Source: an uncultured Verrucomicrobiota bacterium (GTDB taxonomy: Bacteria > Verrucomicrobiota > Verrucomicrobiia > Limisphaerales > SXQI01). From it: a DNA stretch of 64,000 nt. The stretch spans positions 23,442 to 87,441 of the forward strand of contig CAYZKY010000003.1 in assembly GCA_964478815.1 (NCBI GenBank). Reading direction: 5' to 3'. Each line of letters starts with the position of its first letter. The first letter of the stretch is position 1. The notes under the pieces were generated by a model. That model was given only the letters and a program-made list of their open reading frames with translations, was not told the origin of the DNA and made no database searches. The position numbers were made by a program, and so were the translations under genes. Shown one piece after another: positions 24,872-64,000 of the stretch.

Positions 24872-27800
24872 TCACAGCTCGACGATCCGGTAGAACCGGC
24901 GGGCCTGGTTGATCGTGTCCGTCGCGGTCGAACTCGCGCCGGTGGCGTTGACCGTCGTCAGAGCCGTCCATGCCGCATCGGCCAGCTCCGCCTTATATTC
25001 GATCCGATAGCTGGTGGCGGCTTCCGAGACCCACGTCATCGTCAATGTCCCATTCGCCGCCGCCACCGCCGAGAAACGCAGTCCGGCCGCCGGCGTGCCG
25101 CCATTGGCGGTGCCGGGCGTGGGGACGGCCAGCGTCTGGATCTCCGCGCCGCCGTTCGGCACCCGGCCCATGCTTTCATCTCCGTCCTGTTCTCCGAATG
25201 TTACGCTGTCGACCAGCGTGCCATTCGGCGCGAAAAGTCCGATCGTATCGCCCTCCGCGCTCAAACGGAACGAGGCGTGCAAGTCGCCGTTGTCGGCAGA
25301 TTCGCTGTCGGCCCAGACGAGCAGATACCCGCCGGCCGGAATGGTCACCCCGTTGGGGATGACGAATTGCCCCGGGCGTTCCAGATCGTCGGTCAGGCTG
25401 TAGCCGCTCAAGTCCACGGCGCCGGCACCGGCGTTGTACAGTTCGAACCAATCGTCGTAATCTCCATCGTCCGGATCGGGAATCGTGCTGACGTTCGACG
25501 CCATCCATTCGTTGATGAACACGGAAACCGGACCCGGCGACGCGTTATTGGCCGCCCCCGGCGTCGCGGTGAAGAAAAGCTGGCGGAGAACCGCCTGCCC
25601 ATCCGGGTACGCTCCATAGGCGCGCGCCGCCGGCAACGCTTCGTAGCTGATGTAGTCGAACACGACCGGCTGGCCGTTTTGGAGGCCAGCCAATCCCACG
25701 CTCCCCGTGCCGGCCGGCAAGCGGAAATTCGCATGCCATTGCGCGGGGGTGCTTTCCCCCGGCTCATTGTCCAGCCACACGACCACGAATTGCCCTGGGG
25801 CGATCGACGCCCCGGCCGGGAACGCCCATTTCGTCGGCTGGGCATAATCGTCGGTCAGGTACATCCCTGTCAGGCTCACCGCCGTCGCTCCCGAGTTATA
25901 GAGCTCCACCCACGGATCGCGATCGCCCGCCGCATCCGCCGGGCCGTTCAGGTTGCTGGCCACCAACTCATTCACCCACAGTCTCGGAAATGGCGTGAAG
26001 CTCGCGCGCACGGAGTTCGCGGCGCCCGGCGTCGCATTCCCAACGTGCATCGCCCAATTCCCAACGCGGGTCGTGTCCTGCGCCGGATCCACGACTTGCA
26101 GGGAGACCGGTGCTCCCAATGGGCCGCTCGGCCACGGAGCCACGCTGTCGTACCGCACCGCGGCGAGGACGGTTTGTCCATCGGCCGAGATGAGGCTCAG
26201 CGTCTCGCCTTCGTCATCCAGCGTGCTGCCGCTAAAGCTGCCGGCGATCGGGATGGTGTAGCCATAGGCTTCTCCAAAAGCCACTGGATCTCCCACGACC
26301 ACGAGGAAACCTCCCGGCACGATCACCGTGCCCGGATCGAACACGAAATCCAGCCCGTTGATCCGATTTCCCGACAAATCAAAAGCGGTGGTGCGCGACG
26401 TATTGTGTAATTCCACAAATTCCGCTCCCGGATTCGATGGATTGTACGCGATTTCGTTGAACACCACTCGCCCGGAGAACGCGTCGGGGTTGCCCGTATA
26501 GTTGACCGAGATGGTGTCCGTGGCTTGGCCCACCGCCTGGCCCGTTTGATCGAAACCTTCCACCCGGAGGAGATTCTGCCCCGGTCGCAGCGCCACGCGA
26601 ATTTCCCAGGCGGTAATGTCCTTCCATGTGATGGGATACTCCACCCCGTTCACCTGGATCGTCTTCACCTGGACGGGCGCATTGCCGGAGAGAACCAGCG
26701 TATTGCGGTTCGTTCCGAAGTTGTTGCCATTATTGATCGTGATGGCGAATCCGGAACCCACGCTCGCGACCTGGGAGAGGATGTACTGGCGCCGATCCGC
26801 GATCCAATCCTTGACCGTATCCGCCGGAGACACCGGCACCCCATTCGCCAGCAAGGCCTGATGCCGGGCATCGATGATCGGATTGACCCGTGAAGGCACG
26901 AACGGCCCGTGGGCGATCTCGTACAAAGCTCTCAGGTACGAGCGCCGGAACTCGATGGTGGCGTTGAACATCCGCTGCGTCACCTTGTCGATCGTGCCGT
27001 CGAAATGGGCCACGTCGAACAGGTCGGCGGTAGTGCCATCGCCCAGCCCGAAGGAAAACGCATTGTCCCAATGCATCAACGTCCATTTGCCCCCGGTCGG
27101 CTTGTAGGCGTACATGTTCTTTCCACGCCGGTAGCCGAAAGCATCCCAATCGCCCGAGGCGTGGCGCAGCGCCATGACCGCCATCCATTGGTCGACGTCG
27201 ATCAACTCCTTCAGCCGGGCCGTGAATTGTTCCTGGTTCGGTGTGTTCGCGGCCTCCACGAGGCGCAGCAGTTCCGAATAATCGTGATGGCTGTCGTTGA
27301 CCGCCCGCTTGCGGAACCACCACCGGTACCGCTCCTGTTTCAGTTCCGGCAATCCCGTCGCCAGATTCGTCGTCGTCAAGGCGATCAACTCCGCGTCCAG
27401 ATTGCCGAACCCGAACGTGTCGTTGTACTCGAACCAGTCTTCGATCTTGTGCAGGACGCCCTCGGCGGCGTTCGGATACCATTGCTCGATGAAATCGCTG
27501 CTCGGTTGTTGTGCATCCTCGAACACCAGCCCCGCGTTCCGGTCAACCCCGTTCAGACTGAGATAGTGGTACCGCCGGTAGTTCGCCGGCTGCCCCATCT
27601 GATCGGCCATCCAGAAGAAGACCTGTTCCCGCACGCCTGTCGAATCGCTGGCAATGTTCGAGGGCAGATTCAACACGAAATCCGTCTGGCCCAGAAAAAG
27701 ATCGTCCTCCGGCGCGATCAAGAGGTAGTTGCAAAAATTCCCCAGCGGCCCGTTATACCCGCCCCAGTGGAATGGGCTGCCGCTGTACAGCGCCCCCGCG

Positions 27801-30800
27801 TTGTAAATCACCCGCTCGTCGTCATAAACGAACGTCGCGTCGAGCGGCTTGTTGCTCGCCTGCTCGCGACGGGTCCAGCGGTCGAGCGTCCGATGGCTGA
27901 CCCAGATGCGGTACATGCCCAACGTGCTGTTCGCCGGGCGCGTCTCGCCGACCCGCACCAACGCTTCCTGCACGGGCGCCGCCGCGGGGAATCGTGCGCT
28001 CGCTCCCACCGAATCGGCCGCTTCCACGTAAAACGCCACCATCGTTCCATTCGTTTGCTCGGGAATTGACGCGCTGTAATAGCCCGCCCCGCTATAGACC
28101 ATCGGCAGGACGCTGTAATTCGTGCTGGGATCGATGCGATACCGCACCGAAACCAGCGCCAGCCCATCCGGATCGTCGACCTGCGCCGACACGCGAATCG
28201 TCTCGCCCGGCGGCGGCAGCACCGGGCTGTGCGTGACATGCGCGATCGCCGGACCGGCATTGGCCACCCGGCGGCTGTTCGCGGCTCCCGGCGTGCCGAG
28301 GTTGGACGGCAAGGCCATCCGCCCCGCCGCTTCCAAATAATTGCCGTGGATGCGCACCAGGATTTCCGGCGTGCCCCGCAGCCATTTCACGTCGGCCCGG
28401 ATGGTGGCGATCATCCCGTTCGTCACGCCTTGCGTCAGCCGGCCTCGAATCCGGTTGGCCGAGGTATCCCCCCGCGCCGCGGCCCGAATGTGCAGCGAGT
28501 TCGGAGTGCCGTTTCCTTCGGTCTGGTTCAGCACCGAGTCATCGTGCGTCCCGCCGGACAGCCAGTCGCGCAAGCCTTGCGTGAAGCCCGCGTTCGAAAC
28601 GAGATTGGTCGTGTTGCCGTCGAGAACCACCTGCACGTTGTCCAGCAGGGCCTCCCCTTTATCCATGAGCAGGACATGGACATTGCGGCTGGGATTGACC
28701 GCCGTAAAGTTTGTCATGCCGTGGTCCAAAATGCCCCGGCGTTCGATCGTGGTCCAAGTGCCCTTGGCCGTCTCATCGCTGTCCGCCCAATTCGAGGCGA
28801 AGGCCGGATCCGCATCCGGATCGACCAGTTCCAGGCTGCTCCCGCCGCCATCGGCCCATTCGCCCCAGCGTCCCCCCGTGCCGTAGGCCACTTCATTGAC
28901 CACCACGTAATCGGTGACGGCCGGGGTCGATCCGGCCGACGGAGTGATCTGCGGCATGCTCAGCGTGATCCGTTCCCCATCGTTCGCCAACTGGCCGTTG
29001 AAATTCCCGAAGCTGTTCGCCGCCGTCAATTGGGGGTGGCTCGCCCGCAGTTTGGCGAGATCCTTCGCCACCACCGCGAACCCGCCCGCCGGGAGCACGG
29101 TGGGAGACGCGAAGGTATGCGAAATGCCATCCCCGAGCCGCCAGCCCCCGATATCCACGGCCTGCCCGCTGCGATTGAACAACTCGACATACTCCAGATC
29201 CCCATCGCCCGAGACCGGATTGTACATGATCTCGTTGATGACCACCGGCGAGAGCCGCCGCTCGCGATTGGCCACCCCCGGCGTGGGAGCCGCCAGCAGC
29301 CGAATCTCCGGGCTTCCATCCGGAAACCGCCCGCTCGCAACGCCCGCCGCCTGCGCCGCAAAACGCAGCGCGGTGATGACATGGGTCTTGATGGGATTCC
29401 GCACGATGATCCGCTCGCCCCCGGAACTCAACGCGAACCCAAGTTGCGTTTCGGTAAAACTGACGTAACCCAGCGCCGGAACCACCGTTCCCGCCGGCAC
29501 CTGGTACTTGTCCGAATTGGGTGTATCGCTGATCCAGACACCCGACAAATCCACCGGTTGGGCGCCATAGTTAAACAACTCGATGAAATCGACCGCCGGA
29601 AGGTCGGAATTCGCCAAAAACTCGTTGATTACAATCCCTTCGTATCCCGTCGGGGCCGCCGGCTCCGCCCGGCCCGGCGATCCTCCGATAAACGAACTCA
29701 CGGACCAGGCGCGAGGATCCTTCTCACCGTAGGTCGGCCTGGAGAGAATCATCGAATGCCCGGCTTCGTCCGCCGCCACCGGCCAGCCTCCCCCGGTGTC
29801 GTAATTCACCTCGAACAAATGCGCTCCGTGCGCATTCTCGAGACGCACCGTGCCCTGTCCATTCGGCAGCGATTCGGCATACCCCCCATACACCCGCGGC
29901 ACTCCGTAAACGATCTGGATATCCGACGGAACCGGCGCCACCACCAGGAACCCGTGCGGCGGAATGAACACGCCATCGGGCAGTGTGTAGTTGATATCGC
30001 CCCGCAGCCGGTACCCGCCGATGGTTTCCGTGAACGGATTGCTGTTATGCAGCTCGATATACTCCAGATTCCGCGCATCCGTCCGCACGGCCGGCGCAAA
30101 CATGATCTCGGAAATCACCAACCCGGACCGCCGGGTCGAGGGCCCCAGGCGTTCCCGGCCGCCATAGACCGTCGCGGTGGGCAGGCTCACCACCTGGTAG
30201 GAAAACTCCGCCCGGCTGTCGGGATCGATCTCATTCGGCTGATCCGCCCGGTCCCGAATGTTGCTCACCACCACCGCATACGATCCGCCGAGGGTCTGAG
30301 GCGAGGTCTGGAGCAGCACGATCTGTCCCGACGGGTCTAATGTCGCTCCCAACACGGTGATGCCGTCGAAAACCTGGTAATTGCTCAACCGGGTGGCGCT
30401 GACCGGATCGACCGGCTTCGAGAATGTGATCGCCACCGCATCGGCCCGGCCCGGGTTTTGGGCGGAGAGGATCAACGGCGCCACCAAGTCCCGATCGACC
30501 GTGAGAACCGCCTCCGTGCTCTGCGCCTGGCCGAACTGATTCACCAACACCACGCGATACCGGCTCCCGCTGTCCGCGATGCGCGTCGCCGGCAGGAACA
30601 AGGTTTGGTTGGTTTCGCCAAGCAGGTCCACGCCGTTGCGCTGCCACTGCGCCTTCACCCCGCTGCGATTCGCGAGCTGAACCGAGAACAAGGCCGGCTG
30701 CCCTTCCGTCACCCGCACATTGGCGGGCTGCCGCGTGATCTGCGGCGGGATCAGCTCCGCCAGGCTGCGCGAACCGGGGATCGGCTCCTCGATCGTTCCA

Positions 30801-31372
30801 TCCGGAAGCTGCCACCGGACCGCCAGATGGTCGGAACCCGTCGTTTCGATCATCAGCGCCTCAATGTAGTACATCCGGTCTGCTTCCAGTTGAAGCGGCT
30901 GCGACTGTTGGGTGGCCAATTGATCCCAAAACCGGGGCGGCACCGAAAAATCGTTCCACGCGATCTCGCGCTTGTTCGCCGGATCCTCGTCGGTGCTGAG
31001 CCAGAGCTGCGAAGCGAAGTTCGCCGCGATCCAAAACGTATAATCCCCCGTCGTTGGCGGGATCAGATACCCGCGCACCCGCTGCCCATAAAAATCGGCG
31101 TAGTTGGCCGGCGTCTCGAAATCCTCCAGCAGCTCCACCGTCGCGGGCGAATCCGGGAACGAGGGATGATTCAACAATCCGTCGATGCCGTTAAACGCGA
31201 ACACGTTGGTGTACACCTCGCGGATAAACCCGTTCTGGGCATGCGCGGAGGGGGCCAGCAACAGGAACACGGCACAAAGGCTCGCTACGATAAAGGCTTT
31301 ACGACTCAGGGTATTCACAGCTAGGTGCGGGCGAGTCTGAGGAGCGGTCACCGCTTTGTCAAACTCCGACAT
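24872..31372 (-). CDS. Giant (2166 aa) secreted protein with a PA14-like N-terminal domain, Ig-like region, about 7 lamin-tail domains and a CotH kinase-like domain
   Basis: A signal/TM segment is followed by a PA14-like region (YGQRVRGYLIPPTTGDYTFWIAANFASQLWLS). Repeated LTD signatures include VISEIMFAP...YIELHNSNP, VINEFLANS...FIELFNYG, VINEIMYNP...YVELFNRS, VFNEIAYNP...FVELHNTS, WVNELVASN...WVELYNSG and FINEWMASN...WFELYNAG. A CotH-like core lies in the middle (YRIWVSHRT...YNAGALYSGSPFHWGG). Confidence 0.88.
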   Translation of the reverse strand: MSEFDKAVTAPQTRPHLAVNTLSRKAFIVASLCAVFLLLAPSAHAQNGFIREVYTNVFAFNGIDGLLNHPSFPDSPATVELLEDFETPANYADFYGQRVRGYLIPPTTGDYTFWIAANFASQLWLSTDEDPANKREIAWNDFSVPPRFWDQLATQQSQPLQLEADRMYYIEALMIETTGSDHLAVRWQLPDGTIEEPIPGSRSLAELIPPQITRQPANVRVTEGQPALFSVQLANRSGVKAQWQRNGVDLLGETNQTLFLPATRIADSGSRYRVVLVNQFGQAQSTEAVLTVDRDLVAPLILSAQNPGRADAVAITFSKPVDPVSATRLSNYQVFDGITVLGATLDPSGQIVLLQTSPQTLGGSYAVVVSNIRDRADQPNEIDPDSRAEFSYQVVSLPTATVYGGRERLGPSTRRSGLVISEIMFAPAVRTDARNLEYIELHNSNPFTETIGGYRLRGDINYTLPDGVFIPPHGFLVVAPVPSDIQIVYGVPRVYGGYAESLPNGQGTVRLENAHGAHLFEVNYDTGGGWPVAADEAGHSMILSRPTYGEKDPRAWSVSSFIGGSPGRAEPAAPTGYEGIVINEFLANSDLPAVDFIELFNYGAQPVDLSGVWISDTPNSDKYQVPAGTVVPALGYVSFTETQLGFALSSGGERIIVRNPIKTHVITALRFAAQAAGVASGRFPDGSPEIRLLAAPTPGVANRERRLSPVVINEIMYNPVSGDGDLEYVELFNRSGQAVDIGGWRLGDGISHTFASPTVLPAGGFAVVAKDLAKLRASHPQLTAANSFGNFNGQLANDGERITLSMPQITPSAGSTPAVTDYVVVNEVAYGTGGRWGEWADGGGSSLELVDPDADPAFASNWADSDETAKGTWTTIERRGILDHGMTNFTAVNPSRNVHVLLMDKGEALLDNVQVVLDGNTTNLVSNAGFTQGLRDWLSGGTHDDSVLNQTEGNGTPNSLHIRAAARGDTSANRIRGRLTQGVTNGMIATIRADVKWLRGTPEILVRIHGNYLEAAGRMALPSNLGTPGAANSRRVANAGPAIAHVTHSPVLPPPGETIRVSAQVDDPDGLALVSVRYRIDPSTNYSVLPMVYSGAGYYSASIPEQTNGTMVAFYVEAADSVGASARFPAAAPVQEALVRVGETRPANSTLGMYRIWVSHRTLDRWTRREQASNKPLDATFVYDDERVIYNAGALYSGSPFHWGGYNGPLGNFCNYLLIAPEDDLFLGQTDFVLNLPSNIASDSTGVREQVFFWMADQMGQPANYRRYHYLSLNGVDRNAGLVFEDAQQPSSDFIEQWYPNAAEGVLHKIEDWFEYNDTFGFGNLDAELIALTTTNLATGLPELKQERYRWWFRKRAVNDSHHDYSELLRLVEAANTPNQEQFTARLKELIDVDQWMAVMALRHASGDWDAFGYRRGKNMYAYKPTGGKWTLMHWDNAFSFGLGDGTTADLFDVAHFDGTIDKVTQRMFNATIEFRRSYLRALYEIAHGPFVPSRVNPIIDARHQALLANGVPVSPADTVKDWIADRRQYILSQVASVGSGFAITINNGNNFGTNRNTLVLSGNAPVQVKTIQVNGVEYPITWKDITAWEIRVALRPGQNLLRVEGFDQTGQAVGQATDTISVNYTGNPDAFSGRVVFNEIAYNPSNPGAEFVELHNTSRTTAFDLSGNRINGLDFVFDPGTVIVPGGFLVVVGDPVAFGEAYGYTIPIAGSFSGSTLDDEGETLSLISADGQTVLAAVRYDSVAPWPSGPLGAPVSLQVVDPAQDTTRVGNWAMHVGNATPGAANSVRASFTPFPRLWVNELVASNLNGPADAAGDRDPWVELYNSGATAVSLTGMYLTDDYAQPTKWAFPAGASIAPGQFVVVWLDNEPGESTPAQWHANFRLPAGTGSVGLAGLQNGQPVVFDYISYEALPAARAYGAYPDGQAVLRQLFFTATPGAANNASPGPVSVFINEWMASNVSTIPDPDDGDYDDWFELYNAGAGAVDLSGYSLTDDLERPGQFVIPNGVTIPAGGYLLVWADSESADNGDLHASFRLSAEGDTIGLFAPNGTLVDSVTFGEQDGDESMGRVPNGGAEIQTLAVPTPGTANGGTPAAGLRFSAVAAANGTLTMTWVSEAATSYRIEYKAELADAAWTALTTVNATGASSTATDTINQARRFYRIVEL

Positions 31373-54448: not shown

Positions 54449-55945
54449 TCAGTACTGCTTGCGGAGATGCGAGGGAAGAATATCGAGTTCGGCCCGATAT
54501 TTCGCGACCGTCCGCCGCGCGATCTGAATGCCGCGCTCGGTCAGGCGCCGCACGATCTCCTCGTCCGAGAGCGGCTTGGAAGAATCTTCGTTTGCCACCA
54601 TCTCGTTGATCATTTCCTTCACGCTGGTGTTGGACATCCCGTCCCCGTTCGAGGTCTTCAATCCCGACGTGAAGAAATACTTCATCTCGAACACGCCGCG
54701 AGGCGTTTGCATGTATTTGCCCGAAACCGCCCGGGACACCGTCGTTTCATGCACGCCCACCACCTCGGCCACCTGCACCATCGTCATCGGTTTGAGATGG
54801 GAGACGCCTTTTTCCAAAAATTCCTTCTGCCGGTTCACGATCTCCCGCGCGATATTCAGAATGGTCTCCTGCCGCTGGTGGAGGCTCTTGATCAGGAACT
54901 TGCCCGCGCGAATCTTTTCCCGGATCCACTCCCGCACTTCCCCGGAACTTTCCGCCTGGGACATCAAATCCTTGTAAGCATTGCTGATTCGCAGATGCGG
55001 CACCTGATCGTTATTGGTGGAGACGATGTAATCGCCCACCTCGGTCCGGCTCACAAAAATCTCCGGCACCACGTACATCTGGTTGTCGGGCAGGAACGAC
55101 CGGCCGGGCTCCGGTTCGAGCAGGGCGATGCGCCCCACCGCATCCTGCACCTGGTCGACGCCCAAACCCAGCGCGCGGGAAATTTCCGGCAGACGCCGTT
55201 TCCCCAAGGCATCCATGTGCTCGCAAAGCATCCGGTACTCGATCGTCTCTTTCTTGCCGAGCCGCTCCAACTGAATCTTGAGGCATTCGCACAGGTCCCG
55301 CGCCGCCACCCCGGGTGGATGGAAACTTTGCACCACTCTCAGCACCCGCTCGATCGAGTCCTTCGGGATGTTTGTGGAAAAGGCCAGTTCATCGACCGTC
55401 GCGCGCAGATACCCCCGGTCGTCGATATTGCCGATGAGCATCTCGGCGATTTGCTGCTCCTCCTCGCTTAGCTCCGACAGGCGGACCTGCTCCAGCAACG
55501 TTTCCTGCAGGGAAGTCCCAGCCACGATCGAATCGAACATATACTGCCGCTTCTCGTCGTCCTCGGCACTCTGGCGGAGCGGGGTGTTCGTCTGCGAAAA
55601 GTGCTCGCGCCACTCCTGATCCAACTGGCTGAGCCGCTCGAACTCGGCTTGAAAATCCTCGACCGGCTCCACTTTCTCGGCGGTTGAGATGTTCTGCATA
55701 TCCTGGGGAGGTTCCGCCGGATCGGCCTGGTCCGGAACGTCGGTTTCGCCGCGGATGGTCTTCTCCTCCTGGTCCATTTCGGCCAGGGCAATTTCTTCCA
55801 GGACGGGGTTCTGCTCGAGCTCCTGCTCGACCAAAGCTTTCAATTCCAGCGTGGGAGCCTGAAGCAAGGCGAGAGACTGCTGAAGCTGAGGCGCCAGCAC
55901 CTGCGAGAGCGCCATCTTCTGCGAGAGTTGCATCGACTGACCCAT
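54449..55945 (-). CDS. rpoN: RNA polymerase sigma-54 factor
   Basis: 498-aa ORF. The N-terminal Gln/Leu-rich region I reads [46 protein letters not shown]. The C-terminal RpoN-box region contains ARRTVAKYR. Confidence 0.95.
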
Positions 55946-56689: not shown

Positions 56690-56980
56690 TCAAGCGGTTT
56701 GGCGCGGCAGGAAAAACAATATCGCGCCCCCCCGCATTTCGCGCGCGCGCAGCGTCAGGGCGTCGAACTCGACCACCAACTCGCGTGCCGGAAACTGGGC
56801 GGCTTCGCCCGAGCGAAAAGCCTGCAATACCGTCTGGGCGATCTCTCCGAGGGCCTCCGCCGGGAAGGTGCTGGGCACCGTCTGGCTGAGCACCCGGCCG
56901 TTTCGGTCCACCGTGCAACTGCCCGTGGGCAATTCTCCGGCGGCCGACCCGGGCCGTTGAAATAACTTCAAGAGTCCCAT
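56690..56980 (-). CDS. Hypothetical small protein (96 aa), possibly Roadblock/LC7-like
   Basis: The ORF overlaps the stop of the RR-PATAN gene by 13 nt. The alternating strand/helix-looking pattern (TVDRNGRVLSQTV...LGEIAQTVLQAF...LVVEFDALTLRAREMRGGAILFFL) resembles Roadblock folds. This is judged by eye only. Confidence 0.5.
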   Translation of the reverse strand: MGLLKLFQRPGSAAGELPTGSCTVDRNGRVLSQTVPSTFPAEALGEIAQTVLQAFRSGEAAQFPARELVVEFDALTLRAREMRGGAILFFLPRQTA

Positions 56981-58062
56981 CGTTCCGTCAACGTAGCCAT
57001 GCCCCGGTCAATCTCCGCCGAACTGAGCGAACCGTTGAATCCTCCCACGATTCGCCGCTGGCCCAACGCGATGATCCGGACGTGGCGCTGCGCGTCCGAC
57101 AAGGTTATCGACCGGATGGCGCCAAACTGAAGCTTTTCCGCGAGCCCCGCGAACGCCTGCACCATCTGATTGGTGCAATCGGCGGCGAGCTGCGGCTCCG
57201 GCAAGCTCCAATGCCGGACCACTTCCTTTGATTCCAGGTCCGTCGACAACGCGAAATCCAGCCCGCGAATGCGGCCGAGCCCGTCCCCTCCTTCCACCTC
57301 GTCGTTCTCTGGCAACGGCACCATCCCGCCCGGCCCCGCGGCCGCTTCGTCCACCGCCTGCGCACTGTCCAGCAGGAGCCCCTGGGCCGAAACCTGGATT
57401 TTCCTGGGATGAGCCGGTTCCCCCGGCAAGATCTGAAAACCGCCCGCTCGCCAGCCCATGATGGTGCGAAAGGCCTCCTCCCCCGCTTGCTCTCCGGTGG
57501 CCGCGTCTACCAATTCTCCCTGATGAATCCAGATTTTTCCCTCAAGTTTGCCGTTGGTAATCCGAAGTACTGAGGAACTGCCGGATAGGCACTCGAGTTG
57601 GATAATATCGACCAGATTTTTGCTCTGCACGCCGCGGAACCCGCCAGCCGGTTCGCGCGTGAGCAGCGATTGAACGCATTCCAGAAAGTAATCCAGTTCC
57701 TTTTCGTTCGAAGGCTTCTCGAAAAAGAAGTCCACGCCGATGGCGTACGCCCGGTTTCGAACATGTTCGTCCGCATGACCCGTAAAGGCCATCGTGCGCA
57801 ATTCTGGAAAGCGGCGGCGCACCACCGCCAGCACCTGCAACCCATCCATGCGCGACATCCGGAGGTCCGAGATGAATAAGGTGAATCCGCCGGTTTCGAG
57901 CAGGGCCAGCGCGTCCGGGCCGGCCGAAGCCGTCTCCACCTCGGGATGGCCCGCCAAGTCGAGCAAAAGCTGCTGGTACATATCCCGCGTCTCAGGATCG
58001 TCATCGAGCAGGAGAATCCTGGGCGGCCGAGGCGGCGTTGGGCTTGAAGTTGGGGGCGTCAT
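56968..58062 (-). CDS. Response regulator with receiver, PATAN/DUF4388 and a C-terminal Roadblock-like region
   Basis: The true start is judged to be MTPPTSSPTPPRPPRILLLDDD at 58062. The track ORF runs to 58680, but that part is Arg/Gly-rich and overlaps the divergent gene. The receiver has LLLDDD, FISDLRMSRMDG and FFEKP. The PATAN/DUF4388 signature reads GFRGVQSKNLVDIIQLECLSGSSSVLRITNGKLEGKIWIHQGELVDA...AFRTIMGWRAGGFQI. Confidence 0.85.
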   Translation of the reverse strand: MTPPTSSPTPPRPPRILLLDDDPETRDMYQQLLLDLAGHPEVETASAGPDALALLETGGFTLFISDLRMSRMDGLQVLAVVRRRFPELRTMAFTGHADEHVRNRAYAIGVDFFFEKPSNEKELDYFLECVQSLLTREPAGGFRGVQSKNLVDIIQLECLSGSSSVLRITNGKLEGKIWIHQGELVDAATGEQAGEEAFRTIMGWRAGGFQILPGEPAHPRKIQVSAQGLLLDSAQAVDEAAAGPGGMVPLPENDEVEGGDGLGRIRGLDFALSTDLESKEVVRHWSLPEPQLAADCTNQMVQAFAGLAEKLQFGAIRSITLSDAQRHVRIIALGQRRIVGGFNGSLSSAEIDRGMATLTERWDS

Positions 58063-58137
58063 CCCGGTTACGGGCCCGTGCTGGTCACGCCATCTCTTAG
58101 CACACCGGAGCGGCGAAGCAAGGTTTTCTGTCTGATC

Positions 58138-60177
58138 ATGCTGGCATTTCTTAAAAACATCTTCGCGCGACGATCGGCTCCGCCGGCCCGTCCGGCCCTT
58201 TCCCATGGCACGCCATCCCCAGCGGCCCACCGAGGCGGGTCCCGTCCGGCCCCTGGCGGCGCCCCGGCGGCTCCCACGCTGCTCGCTCCGTCCCGCGCCC
58301 CGGCACCGATCGAAGAACCGCGCGACGAAACCCCGCCCCCACGCTTTTCCACCGCGCCCGTCCCCGTGCCGACGGTGGACCCCGCTGCGGTCGTGGCCGT
58401 GCCTTGGAGCGCCATCTTCCCTCGCCTGCATCCCGCCCTCATCAAAATGGCGAAGCACCAGCCCAAATCGGGCGAAGTGGTGAATCTCCCGCTCCAGGCA
58501 GTGCTGCTCCAGCTCGCTTCCGGCGCCATTCGGTTCCGCTTCGAGGAATTCGTGGCCATGACGCCGAATGGCTGCTTCGCCGGCGCGGACCCCGGTCCAG
58601 TCCCCCTCGTCGAACTGCCTCTCGTCGAGATCCTGCGCCATGTCGACAATTCCTATCTCGCCCGGCGCCCGGAACAGCATCGAATCGTCGTGCCGGATGA
58701 CATCGGCACCGTCTTCGGCAAAAAGGACGGAAATTTAAAGGTCATCACGGACAAAAAAGCCTTCGCTCCGGCGACGGCCTCGGCCTTGCCGGTTCGTGAA
58801 GTCGAGGAGTCGTTGGCCGCCCACTCGTCGCCGCCCCCCCTCGCGCCTCCCAAGCCGCCCGTTCAAGCTGCACCAGCCGCACCGGCCCCTGCTGCCGTCC
58901 CGCGCCCAACCGCACCTTCGCTGGCTCCGCCCAAACCCGCCGTCCCGCCCGCGCCGACTTCCGCTGCGGCCACCGCGCCGCTGCCGGCTTCGCCCTCGCT
59001 GCCCAAGCCATCGGCACCGGCGCTCAAAACCGACTCGACTCCGACACCGCCGTCAATACCGGCGATCAAGCCGCCGGCCGGGCTAACCGCTCCTAAAGCC
59101 GCGCCGCTCCCGGCTTCATCCTCGCTGCCCAAGCCATCGCCACTGCCCCGGCCGGCGACACCTGCCGCACCTGCCGCCACCAGCGGGGCTGCGATTCCCC
59201 AGCTCCGCCTGGCGACAGAGCCCGCAGCCGACGCGGCACCGAACGCGCCAGTCCAACCCATTTCCCCAATCGCCCCGGCCCCAGCGCCTTCCGTGCCTAA
59301 AATGGCCGCCCCGGAACCTGCTAAGCCCGCGCGCCCCGAGCCGGCCGCTCTCGGTGCCAGTCAACCGGCCGCCGCAGGCGGCGAATTCATCATCCCCCTG
59401 GCAGATCTCGCTCCTCAATGGACGGCATCCGGTCAACCAGACCTCGCCGCCCTCCACCCGCACAGTCTGGCCATTCCCCTCGAACAACTCATGGCCGGCC
59501 TCAAACGCGGCAAGCTGGTGTTCCCCTGGAGCCAGCTCCGGACCTGGTTGCGTCAAGCTCCCGACGCCGCGCTGCCGGAACTCGACGACGCCCTCCCGGT
59601 CACCCTTCCCCTCGCCGTGGTCGCGCCGCTCTTCCTGGCCCGAAATCGGGCCGCCTTCGCTCCGAAAAAAGCCGCGCTCGTTTCGGATATTCCCGACATC
59701 TTCGATGCCAAGCCCAAGCCTGCCCTGCCCGCGCCGGAACCCGCGGCGCCCGTCGCCGATGGAGCGCCCGTGGCTTCGAAGCCTCTCCTCGAGTACGGCG
59801 AAATTTTCGGGCAGCCGGACAAGACCACCTGGTCGCTGCGCGAAGTCGCCGAACGTTGCGCCACCCTCCGCGGCGTCGCCGGCATGATCGTCGCCAACCA
59901 CGAAGGCCTCCTCGTCGCCGGCGCCTGGCCCACCGCCGGCCAGAGCGATGCCGTCGCCGCCTTCATCCCCCGCATGCACCAGCGGATGGTCGAATTCAGC
60001 CGGGAACTCACCCTCGGCGATTCCGATCGCATGACTCTCACCGTGGAAAACCTACCCCTCGAAATCACCCGAACAGGAGAATTCTACATGGCCGTCCTCG
60101 GTCGAGCGAAAGAGAACCTTCCCCGAGTGCAGTTGGGCGCCATCGCCGCCCGTCTCGCGCTGCATCATCAGGCTTAG
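58138..60177 (+). CDS. Pro/Ala-rich protein (679 aa) with a C-terminal Roadblock/LC7 domain
   Basis: The start is placed at MLAFLKNIFARR (58138). About 250 aa of P/A/S low complexity are present. The C-terminal segment LREVAERCATLRGVAGMIVANHEGLLVAGAWPTAGQSDAVAAFIPRMHQRMVEFSRELTLGDSDRMTLTVENLPLEITRTGEFYMAVL matches the Roadblock/LC7 pattern. Confidence 0.8.
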   Translation: MLAFLKNIFARRSAPPARPALSHGTPSPAAHRGGSRPAPGGAPAAPTLLAPSRAPAPIEEPRDETPPPRFSTAPVPVPTVDPAAVVAVPWSAIFPRLHPALIKMAKHQPKSGEVVNLPLQAVLLQLASGAIRFRFEEFVAMTPNGCFAGADPGPVPLVELPLVEILRHVDNSYLARRPEQHRIVVPDDIGTVFGKKDGNLKVITDKKAFAPATASALPVREVEESLAAHSSPPPLAPPKPPVQAAPAAPAPAAVPRPTAPSLAPPKPAVPPAPTSAAATAPLPASPSLPKPSAPALKTDSTPTPPSIPAIKPPAGLTAPKAAPLPASSSLPKPSPLPRPATPAAPAATSGAAIPQLRLATEPAADAAPNAPVQPISPIAPAPAPSVPKMAAPEPAKPARPEPAALGASQPAAAGGEFIIPLADLAPQWTASGQPDLAALHPHSLAIPLEQLMAGLKRGKLVFPWSQLRTWLRQAPDAALPELDDALPVTLPLAVVAPLFLARNRAAFAPKKAALVSDIPDIFDAKPKPALPAPEPAAPVADGAPVASKPLLEYGEIFGQPDKTTWSLREVAERCATLRGVAGMIVANHEGLLVAGAWPTAGQSDAVAAFIPRMHQRMVEFSRELTLGDSDRMTLTVENLPLEITRTGEFYMAVLGRAKENLPRVQLGAIAARLALHHQA

Positions 60178-60181
60178 TACT

Positions 60182-60793
60182 ATGGCACTCATCAATCAGG
60201 CTACCAAAGAGATTCAGGTCAAGATCGTCTACTACGGCCCCGCGCTGTGTGGTAAAACCACCAATCTCATCAAGGTCCACGAGAACATTCAGAGCGCCGC
60301 CGAGAAGTCCAAGCTCGTCTCCCTGCAAAACCAGACCTCCGACCGCACCCTCTTCTTCGATTTCCTCCCCATCGAAGCCACCTCCATCAAGGGCTACCGC
60401 ACCAAATTCCAGCTCTACACCGTGCCCGGCCAGGTCATCTACAACACCACCCGCCAGCTCGTCCTCCGCGGCGTCGACGGCCTCGTCTTCGTCGCCGATT
60501 CGCAATACGAGAAAATGGCCGAGAACGTCGACAGCTTCGCGAACCTCGAGGAAAACCTCAAAGCGCTCAAAATGAACCTGCGCGACATCCCGTACGTCCT
60601 CCAGTACAACAAGCGCGACCTCCCCAACGCCGCGCCCAACGACTACATGGAGTTTCTCCTGAACAACCGCGAGACCATGGTCCCCTCCTTCGAAGCCAGC
60701 GCCCATCAGTGCGACGGCGTCTTCGAAACCCTCAACATGATCACCCGCATGCTCCTCCACCGGCTGCTCAACGAAAATCGCAAAGCCGCCTGA
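60182..60793 (+). CDS. mglA: MglA-family Ras-like small GTPase
   Basis: 203-aa ORF with KIVYYGPALCGKTTNL (P-loop), TLFFDFLP (switch I), the MglA-specific YTVPGQ (Thr in place of Asp of DxxGQ), and YNKRD (NKxD). Confidence 0.9.
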   Translation: MALINQATKEIQVKIVYYGPALCGKTTNLIKVHENIQSAAEKSKLVSLQNQTSDRTLFFDFLPIEATSIKGYRTKFQLYTVPGQVIYNTTRQLVLRGVDGLVFVADSQYEKMAENVDSFANLEENLKALKMNLRDIPYVLQYNKRDLPNAAPNDYMEFLLNNRETMVPSFEASAHQCDGVFETLNMITRMLLHRLLNENRKAA

Positions 60794-60801
60794 TCCCGCC
60801 C

Positions 60802-61284
60802 ATGGGCGAACTCCCCCAACTGATCGAGGAAGATATGACCGCGCTCGACGCGCTCATGGCCGAATTCCTCGCCAAGACGGAAGCCCACGCCGTCCTCCTC
60901 ACCGCCCAGGGCGGCTTCATCATCAGCACCCACGGCGGCACCGAAGGGCTCGACACCATGTCCCTCGCCGCCCTCGCCTCCAATTGCTTCGAGGCCAATC
61001 GCGCCATCGCCGGCCTCATCGGCGAGCAAAACTTCCAGACCATCTACCAGGCCGGGGAAAGCTCCAGCATGTTCGTTCAGAACATCGACGGCTTCAACCT
61101 CATGATCATCCTCTTCCCCGCCCAGGTCGCCGTCGGCCTCGTCAAGCACTACAGCCGCTCCGCCGGCGGCGCCATCGCCCAGGTCTTCGAGCAGGCCCAC
61201 CGCCGCACCCCCGGCGTCATCCTCGACCTCGCCATGCTCAACCTCCCCGACAGCAGCGAACTCTTCCGCCGCAAAGCCAGTTAG
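60802..61284 (+). CDS. Roadblock/LC7 domain protein (MglB-like candidate GAP partner)
   Basis: 160 aa starting at ATG 60802, 8 nt after the mglA stop. The segment LDALMAEFLAKTEAHAVLLTAQGGFIISTHGG...LAALASNCFEANRAIAGLIG...MFVQNIDGFNLMIILF fits the Roadblock pattern. Confidence 0.8.
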   Translation: MGELPQLIEEDMTALDALMAEFLAKTEAHAVLLTAQGGFIISTHGGTEGLDTMSLAALASNCFEANRAIAGLIGEQNFQTIYQAGESSSMFVQNIDGFNLMIILFPAQVAVGLVKHYSRSAGGAIAQVFEQAHRRTPGVILDLAMLNLPDSSELFRRKAS

Positions 61285-61331
61285 TCAGGAAAGCTCCTGC
61301 CCCCCGCCCCTCACGCCCTCGCCCGGGGAGC

Positions 61332-61349
61332 GCACCTGCCCTCAGGTGC
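61332..61349 (+). terminator. Hairpin downstream of the Roadblock gene (possible terminator, no U-tract)
   Basis: GCACCTG-ccct-CAGGTGC, a 7-bp perfect stem 48 nt after the stop at 61284. No T-run follows, so this call is weak. Confidence 0.3.
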
Positions 61350-61440
61350 TGCAAGCCACGCCCCGCGTCTCGCCCTCCTTGCCCTTACTTCGTCCAACCT
61401 CCACGGCCCCCATTTACCCACGCCCCACATTTCACCCCCT

Positions 61441-61630
61441 CCCGAATCCCAACGGGATTCCAGCATTTAGCCTGGGGTTGCCGGCCTACGGCTTTCCATG
61501 ATCAGTCTTGTAAACCGTTGATAATCAACGCCAATTGTTGTCTGATCATGGGCGGTAAGCAGGTCGAAAAGGAACAGGGAACTACCCCAGGTCACCGCCA
61601 CCCAATCCACCAACCCTGAAAGCGGTTGCA
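61441..61630. repeat. Structured intergenic repeat, copy A, interrupted by a ~96-nt insertion
   Basis: Bases 61441-61489 are identical to 62013-62061 (49/49 by eye). Bases 61585-61630 match 62063-62108 with about 3 mismatches. The two halves are separated by 61490-61585. Confidence 0.75.
61490..61585. mobile_element. Possible miniature (MITE-like) insertion inside repeat copy A
   Basis: The segment is present in copy A but absent from copy B. It is flanked by CTAC on both sides (61486-61489 and 61582-61585). It contains a perfect 10-bp inverted repeat CCATGATCAG (61496-61505) / CTGATCATGG (61542-61551), and in the loop a 13-bp palindrome GTTGATAATCAAC (61517-61529). Confidence 0.3.
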
Positions 61631-62012
61631 TCAATTCTCCCCAGGCAGCCCAAGCCCGGAAAGGGGTGCCCCAACCTTTGTCACCCGCCGCCGGGCATTT
61701 GCCCACCGTGATTGCCTATCCCTCCGTCGCCATCGTGCTTTGCCCAACCCCGCTCACACTGGCGATTCTCGCCCCCTCCAATCCTCAAGACCCCGAAGCG
61801 GGTCGAAAGCCAATAGCCCCGGGTCGCCGCCGGAAACAGCACCGCGCCGCGCGGCTACCCGGGGTAAGGCCAACACAGCAATTCCCCTCTCCTCCTCGTT
61901 CGAGGAGAGGGCCGGGGTGAGGAGTCGCCTCTTCAAATTCCGCCCACTTCCCTCCACGCAGCAGATCGAAAAAACTCGCCCCCCTCGAACACCCCTCCGC
62001 GCCCTCTGCCCC

Positions 62013-62108
62013 CCCGAATCCCAACGGGATTCCAGCATTTAGCCTGGGGTTGCCGGCCTACCCCCCAGGTCACCACCACCAAATCCACCAACCCTGAAAG
62101 CGGCTGCA
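62013..62108. repeat. Structured intergenic repeat, copy B (uninterrupted)
   Basis: Hairpin 1 is GAATCCC-aac-GGGATTC. Hairpin 2 is CCTGGGG...CCCCAGG. This is a direct repeat of copy A, about 570 nt downstream. Confidence 0.75.
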
Positions 62109-62368
62109 CAAGCAACGGCACCGGAAATTCGAAACTTCCCAAGTGCTGCTAGCGAGCACCACCCAGATCTGATCCGCTTCCTGAAGTCCCTGCCCCTCTG
62201 GGCTTGCCTTTCAAACCCACAACTGGACCCGTGGCAAAAGCTCATGCATGCCACCATCCAGCAAGTCCGCCATCGGTATCGATTCCACTTCTTACGACGA
62301 TTTGACCGCTTCGCCTTGCTGGTTGACCTTAAGATTAAAGGACAAAGGAACGCCTCAGGCTTAACTTC

Positions 62369-64000
62369 ATGCACTTCGCTCCAATCGACATTCCCGATGA
62401 ACTCCTGGACGCTCAGGAACAAGGCAAGCTTGTCATTTTCGCCGGAGCCGGAATTTCGGTGGACGAGCCTTCGAGCCTCCCCAAGTTCTCGGAACTTGCT
62501 CTGCAAATTGCAGGATTACACCCTTTGGCAGCGGACTTCGAGAAATACAAAACTCGGCCGGATCGTTTTCTCGGTGAGCTTCATCGAAACCGAGTGGATG
62601 TGCAGATGCTCTGCCGTTCGATAATCGGAAACCCTGCCTCAAAGCCCACTGAACTGCACCGTTCATTGATCGGCTTGTTTCGCAAACAGGAGGACCTCCG
62701 TATCGTCACCACAAATTTCGATAATCATTTTCGGACTGCTCTCGAAGAGCGAAGTCGGAAGGTTGATTACTATCATGCTCCGGCGCTGCCACTTGGCCAT
62801 CAGTTCTCTGGCTTGGTTTATCTCCACGGTTGTGTGAGCAGGCCCGAACCGCTCGTTTTGACCGACGAAGATTTCGGCGCAGCCTACCTTACTGAGGGAT
62901 GGGCACGGGAGTTTCTCCAGAAGCTTTTCGCTGAGTTCACGACTTTGTTCATTGGTTACTCCCACAACGACATTCCCGTGGAGTACCTGGCCCGAGGGAT
63001 GTCGGGAAAGTCCCTTTCACCTCGTTTCGCCCTGACCAGTGGCGAGGACGGACTCTGGTCCTCCTTGGGTATCCGCGAAATCAAGTTTCAAAAATCGTCG
63101 GGCCTCAACCCGTTTGAACACCTTTATACCGGTCTAAGGAGCTGGGCGGAGTTCACTAAGCAACAGCCCACCGACATCGCCGAACGCGTCAAGGCTATCG
63201 TCTGCGCCCCAGACGTGCTCATTCCGGATAAATCGCAGTCAAGCTTGCTTAAACGTTCTCTGGAGCGCGAAGAATCGTCTCATTTCTTTACGAGAGAGGC
63301 ACGAGGGTGGCGCTGGGTTGACTGGCTGCATGGAGAGGGAATGTTGTCTGCCCTATTTGGGGCTTCGCGGCCACAGATGACGATGCCTCAGCGCCATCTC
63401 GCTCGGTGGTTGGCTCATGAACTTCTCGCTGCCGACTCTGAGGAAGCTTTGTTGCTCGTCGAGAAGCACGCTGGTGGTTTGGGGCGAGACCTTTGGTCGG
63501 AGCTCTGCTTCGAATTCACGAGGAACAAGCCCATCGACTGGAGCAAACCTTCAATTCAAAAATGGCTTCCCCTGCTGCTGGAGGCATCGCCACATGACAT
63601 AACCAGCGAGCTTTCGCGGTTAATCAACCGCCTTCCAGAGATCCCACTGCACCCTTTTCCAATGGCCCTGCTTCGCCGTCTAACCACCTTTCGCATCGTC
63701 TTGCGCAAAGAACCGGACTTTGCTTCAGCCCGGAAGAACCCCGAGTCCATCGTATTCAAGCACAAGAGCAAGATCGAGTTAGCAGTTGCCGCGCCAGCAA
63801 GCGTCATCACTACCGCGTGGAACGAGTACTTCAAACCCCGCCTCATCGAATACTGGAATCCGATCGTGCTGCTGCTCGAAAACCGCCTAAGGGAAGGATT
63901 CGAACTCTACCAGATGGCTGGCCAAGCCACAGAATCGAATGACCCTTGCTGCTTCTGTGGACGGATTTATGACAGGGATAGTTTTCGAGATGAGTGCGGG
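62369..64000 (+). CDS. SIR2-family (SIR2_2 / defence-type sirtuin) domain protein with a large uncharacterised C-terminal extension. The 3' end runs off the window (partial, at least 544 aa).
   Basis: Absent from the ORF track because there is no in-window stop. Hand translation from ATG 62369 is open to base 64000. An in-frame TAA lies at 62336-62338. Motifs are GKLVIFAGAGIS (NAD-binding GAGxS), IVTTNFDNHF, VYLHGC (catalytic His, nt 62825-62827) and TLFIGYSHND. GC is clearly lower than in the rest of the window. Confidence 0.8.
   Translation, partial: MHFAPIDIPDELLDAQEQGKLVIFAGAGISVDEPSSLPKFSELALQIAGLHPLAADFEKYKTRPDRFLGELHRNRVDVQMLCRSIIGNPASKPTELHRSLIGLFRKQEDLRIVTTNFDNHFRTALEERSRKVDYYHAPALPLGHQFSGLVYLHGCVSRPEPLVLTDEDFGAAYLTEGWAREFLQKLFAEFTTLFIGYSHNDIPVEYLARGMSGKSLSPRFALTSGEDGLWSSLGIREIKFQKSSGLNPFEHLYTGLRSWAEFTKQQPTDIAERVKAIVCAPDVLIPDKSQSSLLKRSLEREESSHFFTREARGWRWVDWLHGEGMLSALFGASRPQMTMPQRHLARWLAHELLAADSEEALLLVEKHAGGLGRDLWSELCFEFTRNKPIDWSKPSIQKWLPLLLEASPHDITSELSRLINRLPEIPLHPFPMALLRRLTTFRIVLRKEPDFASARKNPESIVFKHKSKIELAVAAPASVITTAWNEYFKPRLIEYWNPIVLLLENRLREGFELYQMAGQATESNDPCCFCGRIYDRDSFRDECG

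Follow-up and report, generated by a model that had tools for sequence, protein, structure and literature searches.

According to earlier work, DSR1 depletes nicotinamide adenine dinucleotide (NAD+) upon infection, and in one DSR1 case that was studied, the depletion was transient and the culture did not collapse (bioRxiv 10.1101/2021.12.14.472415). The sensor of Dsr1 is a bilobed domain of the TPR type, which is common to Avs7, and the members of the Dsr1/Avs7 sensor family, which are joined to effectors of many kinds, recognise the major capsid protein of the HK97 fold (PMC12803255). In a co-expression screen, the phage major capsid protein was the sole trigger of EcDsr1 of E. coli, and the effector domain was required (PMC12803255). 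Here, we describe a gene at the 3′ end of a stretch of 64,000 nucleotides (nt) from an uncultured Verrucomicrobiota bacterium (contig CAYZKY010000003.1); the whole stretch is referred to as the window. The gene encodes an N-terminal SIR2 domain and a long helical region, and we consider it likely that its product works on its own as an anti-phage system of the DSR1 type; the N-terminal 45% of the protein is visible. This is a known kind of single-protein NAD+-depletion system, represented by a divergent clade so far unnamed, and not a new type of system. The gene and its parts are located as follows (aa, amino acid).

62369..64000, plus strand: DSR1-like SIR2-sensor gene, 5′ 45%, an open frame that runs off the end of the window.
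62369..63154, plus strand: N-terminal SIR2 (SIR2_2-type) domain, aa 1-262, a predicted NADase effector (Pfam, Dsr1 profiles, AlphaFold2 and Foldseek).
62444..62458, plus strand: GAGIS, aa 26-30, the glycine-rich NAD-binding loop with the invariant G26, G28 and S30, which aligns to GAGxS of ThsA and Dsr1.
62708..62722, plus strand: TTNFD, aa 114-118, with the candidate catalytic Asn116; the aligned counterparts are TTNYD in ThsA and TTNFD in canonical Dsr1.
62822..62830, plus strand: LHG, aa 152-154, with the candidate catalytic His153, which aligns to HG(D) of ThsA and LHG of Dsr1.
63155..64000, plus strand: first ~280 residues of the putative alpha-solenoid sensor, aa 263-544 (AlphaFold2 and hhalign).
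63689..63787, plus strand: conserved beta-hairpin insertion predicted in the sensor, aa 441-473 (AlphaFold2).

By sequence comparison, the family to which this protein belongs is a distant homologue of Dsr1 over its whole length; it falls outside what the present Dsr1 equivalog model covers and is distinct from Dsr2. Dsr1 was by far the top defence profile for the window fragment, which scored 148.9 bits (expect value, E, of 1.4e-43) against the NCBIfam model NF041818 and 121 bits (E 8e-36) against the PADLOC Dsr1 model. Both profiles match aa 7-262 of the window protein, that is, the SIR2 domain alone (profile positions 9-291). The canonical Dsr1 comparators were two plasmid genes named by the Prokaryotic Genome Annotation Pipeline (PGAP), one from Nitrosococcus pNHAL01 (1268 aa) and one from Duffyella (1282 aa). 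When the family alignment was compared with canonical Dsr1 by hhalign, the match was 100% (E 6e-74) over 1130 colinear columns, with 13% identity. Because the SIR2 domain could dominate this full-length score, the comparison was repeated after the domain had been removed, and the family sensor still matched the Dsr1 sensor (99.9%, E 1.3e-37, 823 colinear columns). The part of the family sensor that lies beyond the window matched Dsr1 with an E of 9.5e-32, and aa 270-544 of the window protein itself matched at 93.7% (E 1.9e-7), with aa ~336-540 mapping to Dsr1 409-631. Moreover, two full-length relatives (L016 and L007) match the PADLOC Dsr1 model PDLC04167 in two stretches (~237 bits), including aa ~505-1178 against profile positions 562-1220, and the partner proteins of naturally split relatives match positions ~750-1244. 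As a control, a canonical Dsr1 (L013) matched the PADLOC model over its full length with 2211 bits, compared with ~240 bits for the clade.

The complete members of the clade share with DSR1 (NF041818, PADLOC Dsr1 and E. coli EcDsr1) the single polypeptide, which is ~1200 aa in the clade and 1260-1280 aa in DSR1, and the N-terminal SIR2_2 domain with GAGxS, TTNFD and LHG, which is ~35% identical over aa 7-265. Both also have a long alpha-helical repeat sensor, which appears colinear and homologous over the whole length, and both are found as lone genes within defence islands or on plasmids. However, the clade differs from DSR1 in its low sensor identity, in the existence of split two-gene forms and in the presence of a DUF4020 region. 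DUF4020 (PF13212) was found near the C-terminus in six of the seven full-length relatives (L007, L016, L008, L009, L010 and L012); at E <= 0.01 it had no match in the seventh (L015) or in either canonical Dsr1 (L013 and L014). The idea that canonical DSR1 consists of SIR2 plus DUF4020 was dropped, and DUF4020 was not used as a defining feature of Dsr1, because neither of the two PGAP-named Dsr1 proteins has a PF13212 match. The term "DUF4020" was not found in the searchable literature, and the named members of the clade are annotated in public databases merely as "SIR2 family protein".

The SIR2 domain itself is of the class associated with defence. Pfam SIR2_2 (PF13289) matches aa 112-227 with 83.6 bits (E 1.8e-23), compared with a gathering cutoff of 24.5 bits, and G26, G28, S30, N116, D118, H153 and G154 are invariant across family alignments of 14 and 48 sequences. 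In the HMMER alignment to ThsA, TTNFD falls on TTNYD and LHG on HGD, which places N116 and H153 at the catalytic Asn and His motifs. A sequence search of the PDB returned SIR2-domain relatives only, the best being the SIR2 domains of ThsA (7UXT and 8WC0), KomC and an unnamed SIR2; it returned no Dsr1-like chain or DSR1 structure. The window protein is a defence-class sirtuin with predicted NAD+ glycohydrolase activity.

For the 544-aa fragment, AlphaFold2 with the 48-sequence alignment gave a mean predicted local distance difference test (pLDDT) score of 87.2 and a predicted template modelling (pTM) score of 0.82, and most of the SIR2 domain had a pLDDT >85. The predicted fold is an alpha/beta SIR2 domain to approximately aa 240, followed by a helical array with the one beta-hairpin. 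When modelled alone, the helical region reached a pLDDT of 89.4 and a pTM of 0.84 and was again predicted as helical repeats with one hairpin. In the Foldseek comparison of the predicted model with the PDB, ThsA was the top match, DSR2 and KomC were also matched, and the SIR2 domain alone superposed: isolated SIR2 chains gave TM scores of 0.63-0.71 with a root-mean-square deviation (rmsd) of 4-5 Å, whereas the long alignments had an rmsd of 15-24 Å. Pfam found no match in the ~320 residues after the SIR2_2 match, and a Foldseek search of the PDB with only the helical region gave no significant match: the best reached E 0.04, and the matches were solenoids of a generic kind, Pumilio, armadillo and PPR among them. 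The predicted sensor fits a repeat-type ligand-binding scaffold that has no deposited structure. By way of Dsr1, this sensor would join the sensor superfamily that includes Avs7 (PMC12803255). A STAND NTPase, as in Avs7, is absent from the window protein, and the helical part of the protein has no PDB match.

The bounds of the gene are clear on the 5′ side. The stop-free translation of 62369-64000 comprises 544 codons, and the frame is still open at base 64000. The ATG at 62369 is an unambiguous start: an in-frame TAA lies upstream at 62336-62338, with no ATG, GTG or TTG in between, and homologues start at the equivalent Met (MxFxPIDIPDELL). No support was found for open reading frames (ORFs) in other frames or on the other strand that overlap 62369-64000. 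The GC content of the gene is 54.2% compared with 62.6% for the window; no other stretch of the window is as low, and the value lies ~3 standard deviations below the mean of segments of the same size (mean 0.627, standard deviation 0.026). At third codon positions, the GC content is 0.61, compared with 0.64-0.86 in eight other long ORFs of the window. This composition is foreign to the window, and the gene was probably acquired horizontally.

An earlier note, made from the letters of this DNA, had anticipated much of this description. Its large SIR2-domain ORF, still open at base 64000, is the stop-free frame described above, and the low-GC segment that it saw does begin with this gene. The motifs GAGIS, TTNFD and LHG (with His at aa 153) and FIGYSHND all lie where it had placed them, the last at aa 194-201. 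The SIR2_2 profile that it proposed to search for is present, with the catalytic Asn and His kept in the alignments, and its reading of a defence-type sirtuin of the SIR2_2 class agrees with Dsr1 being the best defence profile. The long helical region outside the SIR2 domain that it had noted was likewise predicted by AlphaFold2 at high confidence.

Exact matches to the window protein were not found in a collection of 5.8 billion proteins (best match 62% identity), in the contigs of GTDB genomes (best 59%) or in JGI metagenome contigs (best 75-76%, on contigs of ~2 kb). The closest relative with a complete ORF (L016) is 61% identical and is a single chain of 1216 aa. A second relative, from a metagenome-assembled genome of Terriglobia (L007), is 59% identical over all 544 residues and is a single chain of 1214 aa. 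More distant complete relatives are single ORFs of 1168-1213 aa with SIR2_2 and DUF4020. The complete relatives thus span 1168-1216 aa; therefore, ~55% of the gene probably lies beyond base 64000, and the full-length window protein probably has ~1170-1216 aa. When only the non-SIR2 part (aa 264-544) was used in an exhaustive HMMER search, representatives of 310 clusters were matched at E <= 1e-3; the majority are 1160-1235 aa long and are matched at aa ~265-525, where this region also lies in the window protein. At 50% identity, the clade comprises ~310 clusters from Acidobacteriota, Verrucomicrobiota, Actinomycetota, Bacillota and Pseudomonadota. Homologues of the window protein are large, occur in defence islands and on plasmids, and show a patchy phylogenetic distribution.

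Several observations weigh against a stand-alone DSR1-type system. No recognisable defence island is found on the visible upstream side of the window copy, and the 3′ ~55% of the gene lies beyond the window, so that neither the DUF4020 region nor the stop codon, nor any partner further downstream, can be seen. The equivalog cutoff of NF041818 is 1400 bits, far above the 148.9 bits of the fragment and the 257.9 bits of the full-length relative L007, and when aligned over the whole length by hhalign, the clade and canonical Dsr1 are ~13% identical. Because of this low identity and these scores below the cutoff, the trigger by the major capsid protein cannot be transferred to the clade with confidence. 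In addition, in independent loci (L003/L004 and L005) the protein is split within the sensor into ~645 aa and ~530 aa (the latter with DUF4020), with overlapping stop and start codons; other relatives are split elsewhere or end early, and three (L011, L019 and L025) are frameshifted, broken ORFs. The split and shortened forms are as follows.

L003 10001-13520 and L005 10001-13517: pairs split within the sensor; the L003 pair has 648 + 528 aa.
L030 1960-5525: pair split right after the SIR2 domain, 261 + 927 aa, with overlapping stop and start.
L001 1485-3719: P0001, 62% identical to the window protein, which ends at aa 744.
L002 10001-11902: P0008, which ends at aa 633 and has no partner ORF.

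Nature has thus divided this family at two different points, each time with a stop codon that overlaps the next start, and effector and sensor can therefore apparently function when made as two proteins. The truncated and frameshifted relatives point to frequent decay of the family or to assembly errors in contigs of low coverage. It is fair to ask whether the window copy is itself split, with ~640 aa followed by a DUF4020 partner of ~530 aa, or is truncated or pseudogenised, in which case the assignment to the family would hold but the predicted single chain of ~1200 aa would not. Both split forms, the two early ends (at aa 744 and aa 633) and the three frameshifted ORFs speak for such a state. 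However, the two closest complete relatives, of 1216 and 1214 aa, are each one chain, a length of 1160-1235 aa prevails among complete relatives and representatives, and the window ORF is uninterrupted over 544 codons with all of the invariant residues kept. We regard a split or decayed window copy as unlikely, and the nearest complete relatives favour a fused single chain as its probable form. The caution of the earlier note that partner genes might lie downstream was reasonable in view of the split two-gene forms, but most relatives are stand-alone genes.

The earlier note had also found the protein most reminiscent of DSR2, and the two do have the same layout of an N-terminal SIR2 domain and a long helical region. 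DSR2 senses the phage tail tube protein, and a DSR2-like reading of the window protein would make it a tetrameric sensor of that kind. Many DSR2 chains appear in the Foldseek list with an E of ~1e-8, and DSR2 from Bacillus subtilis (8WKN, 8Y13 and others) has a comparable design, in which an N-terminal SIR2 NADase is joined to an alpha-solenoid sensor for a structural protein of the phage. However, these alignments superpose the SIR2 domain only: the long ones have a TM score of ~0.35 on the query and an rmsd of 15-24 Å, compared with TM scores of 0.67-0.71 for SIR2-only chains, and no similarity of sequence or fold to DSR2 was detected outside that domain. The helical region, when searched alone with Foldseek as the earlier note had suggested, matched no DSR2 chain, but it did match the Dsr1 sensor profile in hhalign. 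The Dsr2 models scored 11.7 bits (NCBIfam, E 0.044) and 11.6 bits (PADLOC; E 0.012-0.044 overall), far from the 148.9 bits of Dsr1, whereas a true Dsr2 in one relative's locus (L003) matched the same PADLOC model over its full length with 613 bits. The DSR2-like reading is thus effectively refuted, and we consider it very improbable. We likewise give little credence to a SIR2 effector of another system, such as Thoeris ThsA, SIR2-HerA, SIR2-APAZ/pAgo (SPARSA), the SIR2-STAND protein Avs5 or the SIR2 form of Lamassu LmuA. ThsA is the best PDB relative both by sequence and by predicted fold (7UXT, 8WC0; top Foldseek match) and has the same catalytic Asn and His, and PADLOC gave weak matches over the SIR2 domain to ThsA (38 bits, E 1e-10), LmuA (E 9e-7) and PDC-S25. 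These matches cover the SIR2 domain only (aa 11-207 for the ThsA models) and lie 80-110 bits below Dsr1. ThsA is a protein of ~480 aa (SIR2-SLOG), and its C-terminal SLOG domain binds glyco-cyclic ADP-ribose (gcADPR) made by ThsB; no SLOG was detected in the visible part of the window protein. A SLOG/STALD, STAND NTPase, APAZ or SMC-type region was detected neither in aa 263-544 nor in the full-length relatives, whose only matches are SIR2_2 and DUF4020, and HerA, pAgo, ThsB and LmuB do not recur beside the relatives. With regard to Avs5, no NTPase family matched aa 263-544 or the full-length relatives, and the AlphaFold2 model has a helical array and no alpha/beta P-loop fold. An effector of any of these systems is accordingly very hard to credit.

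The last reading to be weighed is a housekeeping NAD-dependent deacylase of the CobB/Sir2 type that carries an unusual extension. In its favour, the genes seen upstream have housekeeping roles, and the NCBIfam deacylase model NF001752 gives a faint match (E 0.0064). However, this match has 16.1 bits against a cutoff of 221, Pfam assigns the defence-associated SIR2_2 and not canonical SIR2, the homologues are large proteins of defence islands and plasmids with a patchy phylogeny, and the composition of the gene is atypical for the host. We consider the chance of a housekeeping deacylase negligible, and a DSR1-type system is the reading that we retain.

By analogy with DSR1, we infer that the protein is an NADase, how it is activated and triggered, and how its 3′ half beyond the window is built. 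The protein would consist of a SIR2 NAD+ glycohydrolase, with N116 and H153, and an alpha-solenoid sensor of ~950 residues, with a C-terminal DUF4020 region beyond the window. In the resting state, the helical sensor would keep the SIR2 NADase inactive. The sensor would then bind a structural protein of the phage that is made during infection, and this binding would activate the hydrolysis of NAD+, so that cellular NAD+ would fall and phage replication would be blocked.

The upstream genes of the window are ordinary chromosomal genes, and an intergenic region separates them from the SIR2 gene.

61285..62368, no strand: intergenic region of 1.1 kb with two copies of a ~100 nt repeat, at the 5′ boundary of the low-GC segment.
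58078-61284, plus strand: MglA/MglB-like cluster of Roadblock/LC7, Ras-like small GTPase (60182-60793) and Roadblock/LC7 genes.
56968-58680, minus strand: response regulator with DUF4388, beside this cluster.
54449-55945, minus strand: the sigma-54 gene rpoN, also beside this cluster.

The first copy of the repeat (61437-61489 and 61585-61630) is interrupted by 95 nt, and the second (62009-62061 and 62063-62108) is contiguous. The two halves are 98% and 93% identical between the copies, and the repeat was found in no other place than the intergenic region before the SIR2 gene; by chance, no such repeat would be expected. A search of Rfam with 60500-64000 gave no match, the repeat included. The repeat could be a REP-like element or the remnant of a mobile element that marks the boundary of an island. 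No similarity was found between the flanking DNA of the window and the flanks of the relatives.

In a census of neighbours, 110 ORFs around the relatives at 14 loci were examined. The neighbours include genes of BREX (BrxL twice, PglX and PglZ), MADS, type I and II methyltransferases, PbeA, PsyrT and Olokun, and also TIR, AbiEii, Dsr2, integrases and transposases. Because no neighbour family occurs in more than 2-3 of the 14 loci, there is no conserved partner gene in this census. The regions linked to BREX are as follows.

L007 381-6198 and L002 7947-11902: the copies of the clade nearest to the window gene, directly after brxL of two BREX loci.
L017 867-1004: N-terminal fragment of PglX upstream of a third relative.

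The BrxL proteins of the first two, which are type I BREX loci, are 32% identical to each other, and copies of the clade may have been recruited recurrently as an accessory gene of BREX. No BREX genes are present in the window. Linkage to BREX was rejected as a general rule: BrxL occurs only in L007 and L002, the PglX fragment in L017, and none of these in the window.

One further metagenomic island (L003, of which L004 is a near duplicate) contains TIR_2, the split DSR1-like pair, AbiEii, a true Dsr2 and an AAA_16-TPR STAND-like gene; therefore, DSR1-like and DSR2 proteins co-occur there side by side. Elsewhere in the window, ARAGORN called a tRNA-Ser(cga) of 74 nt at 29795-29868 on the minus strand, inside an ORF of 2166 aa on the same strand (24872-31372). 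In bacteria, tRNA-Ser normally carries a long variable arm, which makes the molecule longer; because 74 nt is too short for such a molecule, the call is probably a false positive.

Through the present analysis, what was annotated only as a "SIR2 family protein" becomes a defined candidate for a DSR1-type, NAD+-depleting phage sensor, whose clade the equivalog models leave unnamed, and this is useful for annotation. The clade is also of value for studying how sensor scaffolds diversify, for which the strongly diverged sensor, the points at which effector and sensor are naturally split apart and the copies adjacent to BREX offer handles. We further entertain, as a tentative and rather doubtful idea, that the SIR2_2-DUF4020 clade is a functionally distinct sister of DSR1. 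Such a clade may respond to a phage trigger that differs from the major capsid protein of the HK97 fold, can be split into effector and sensor genes at two points, and would recur as an accessory gene at the 3′ end of BREX operons. If this were true, the copies adjacent to BREX would suggest a second, abortive layer of defence that is coupled to BREX.

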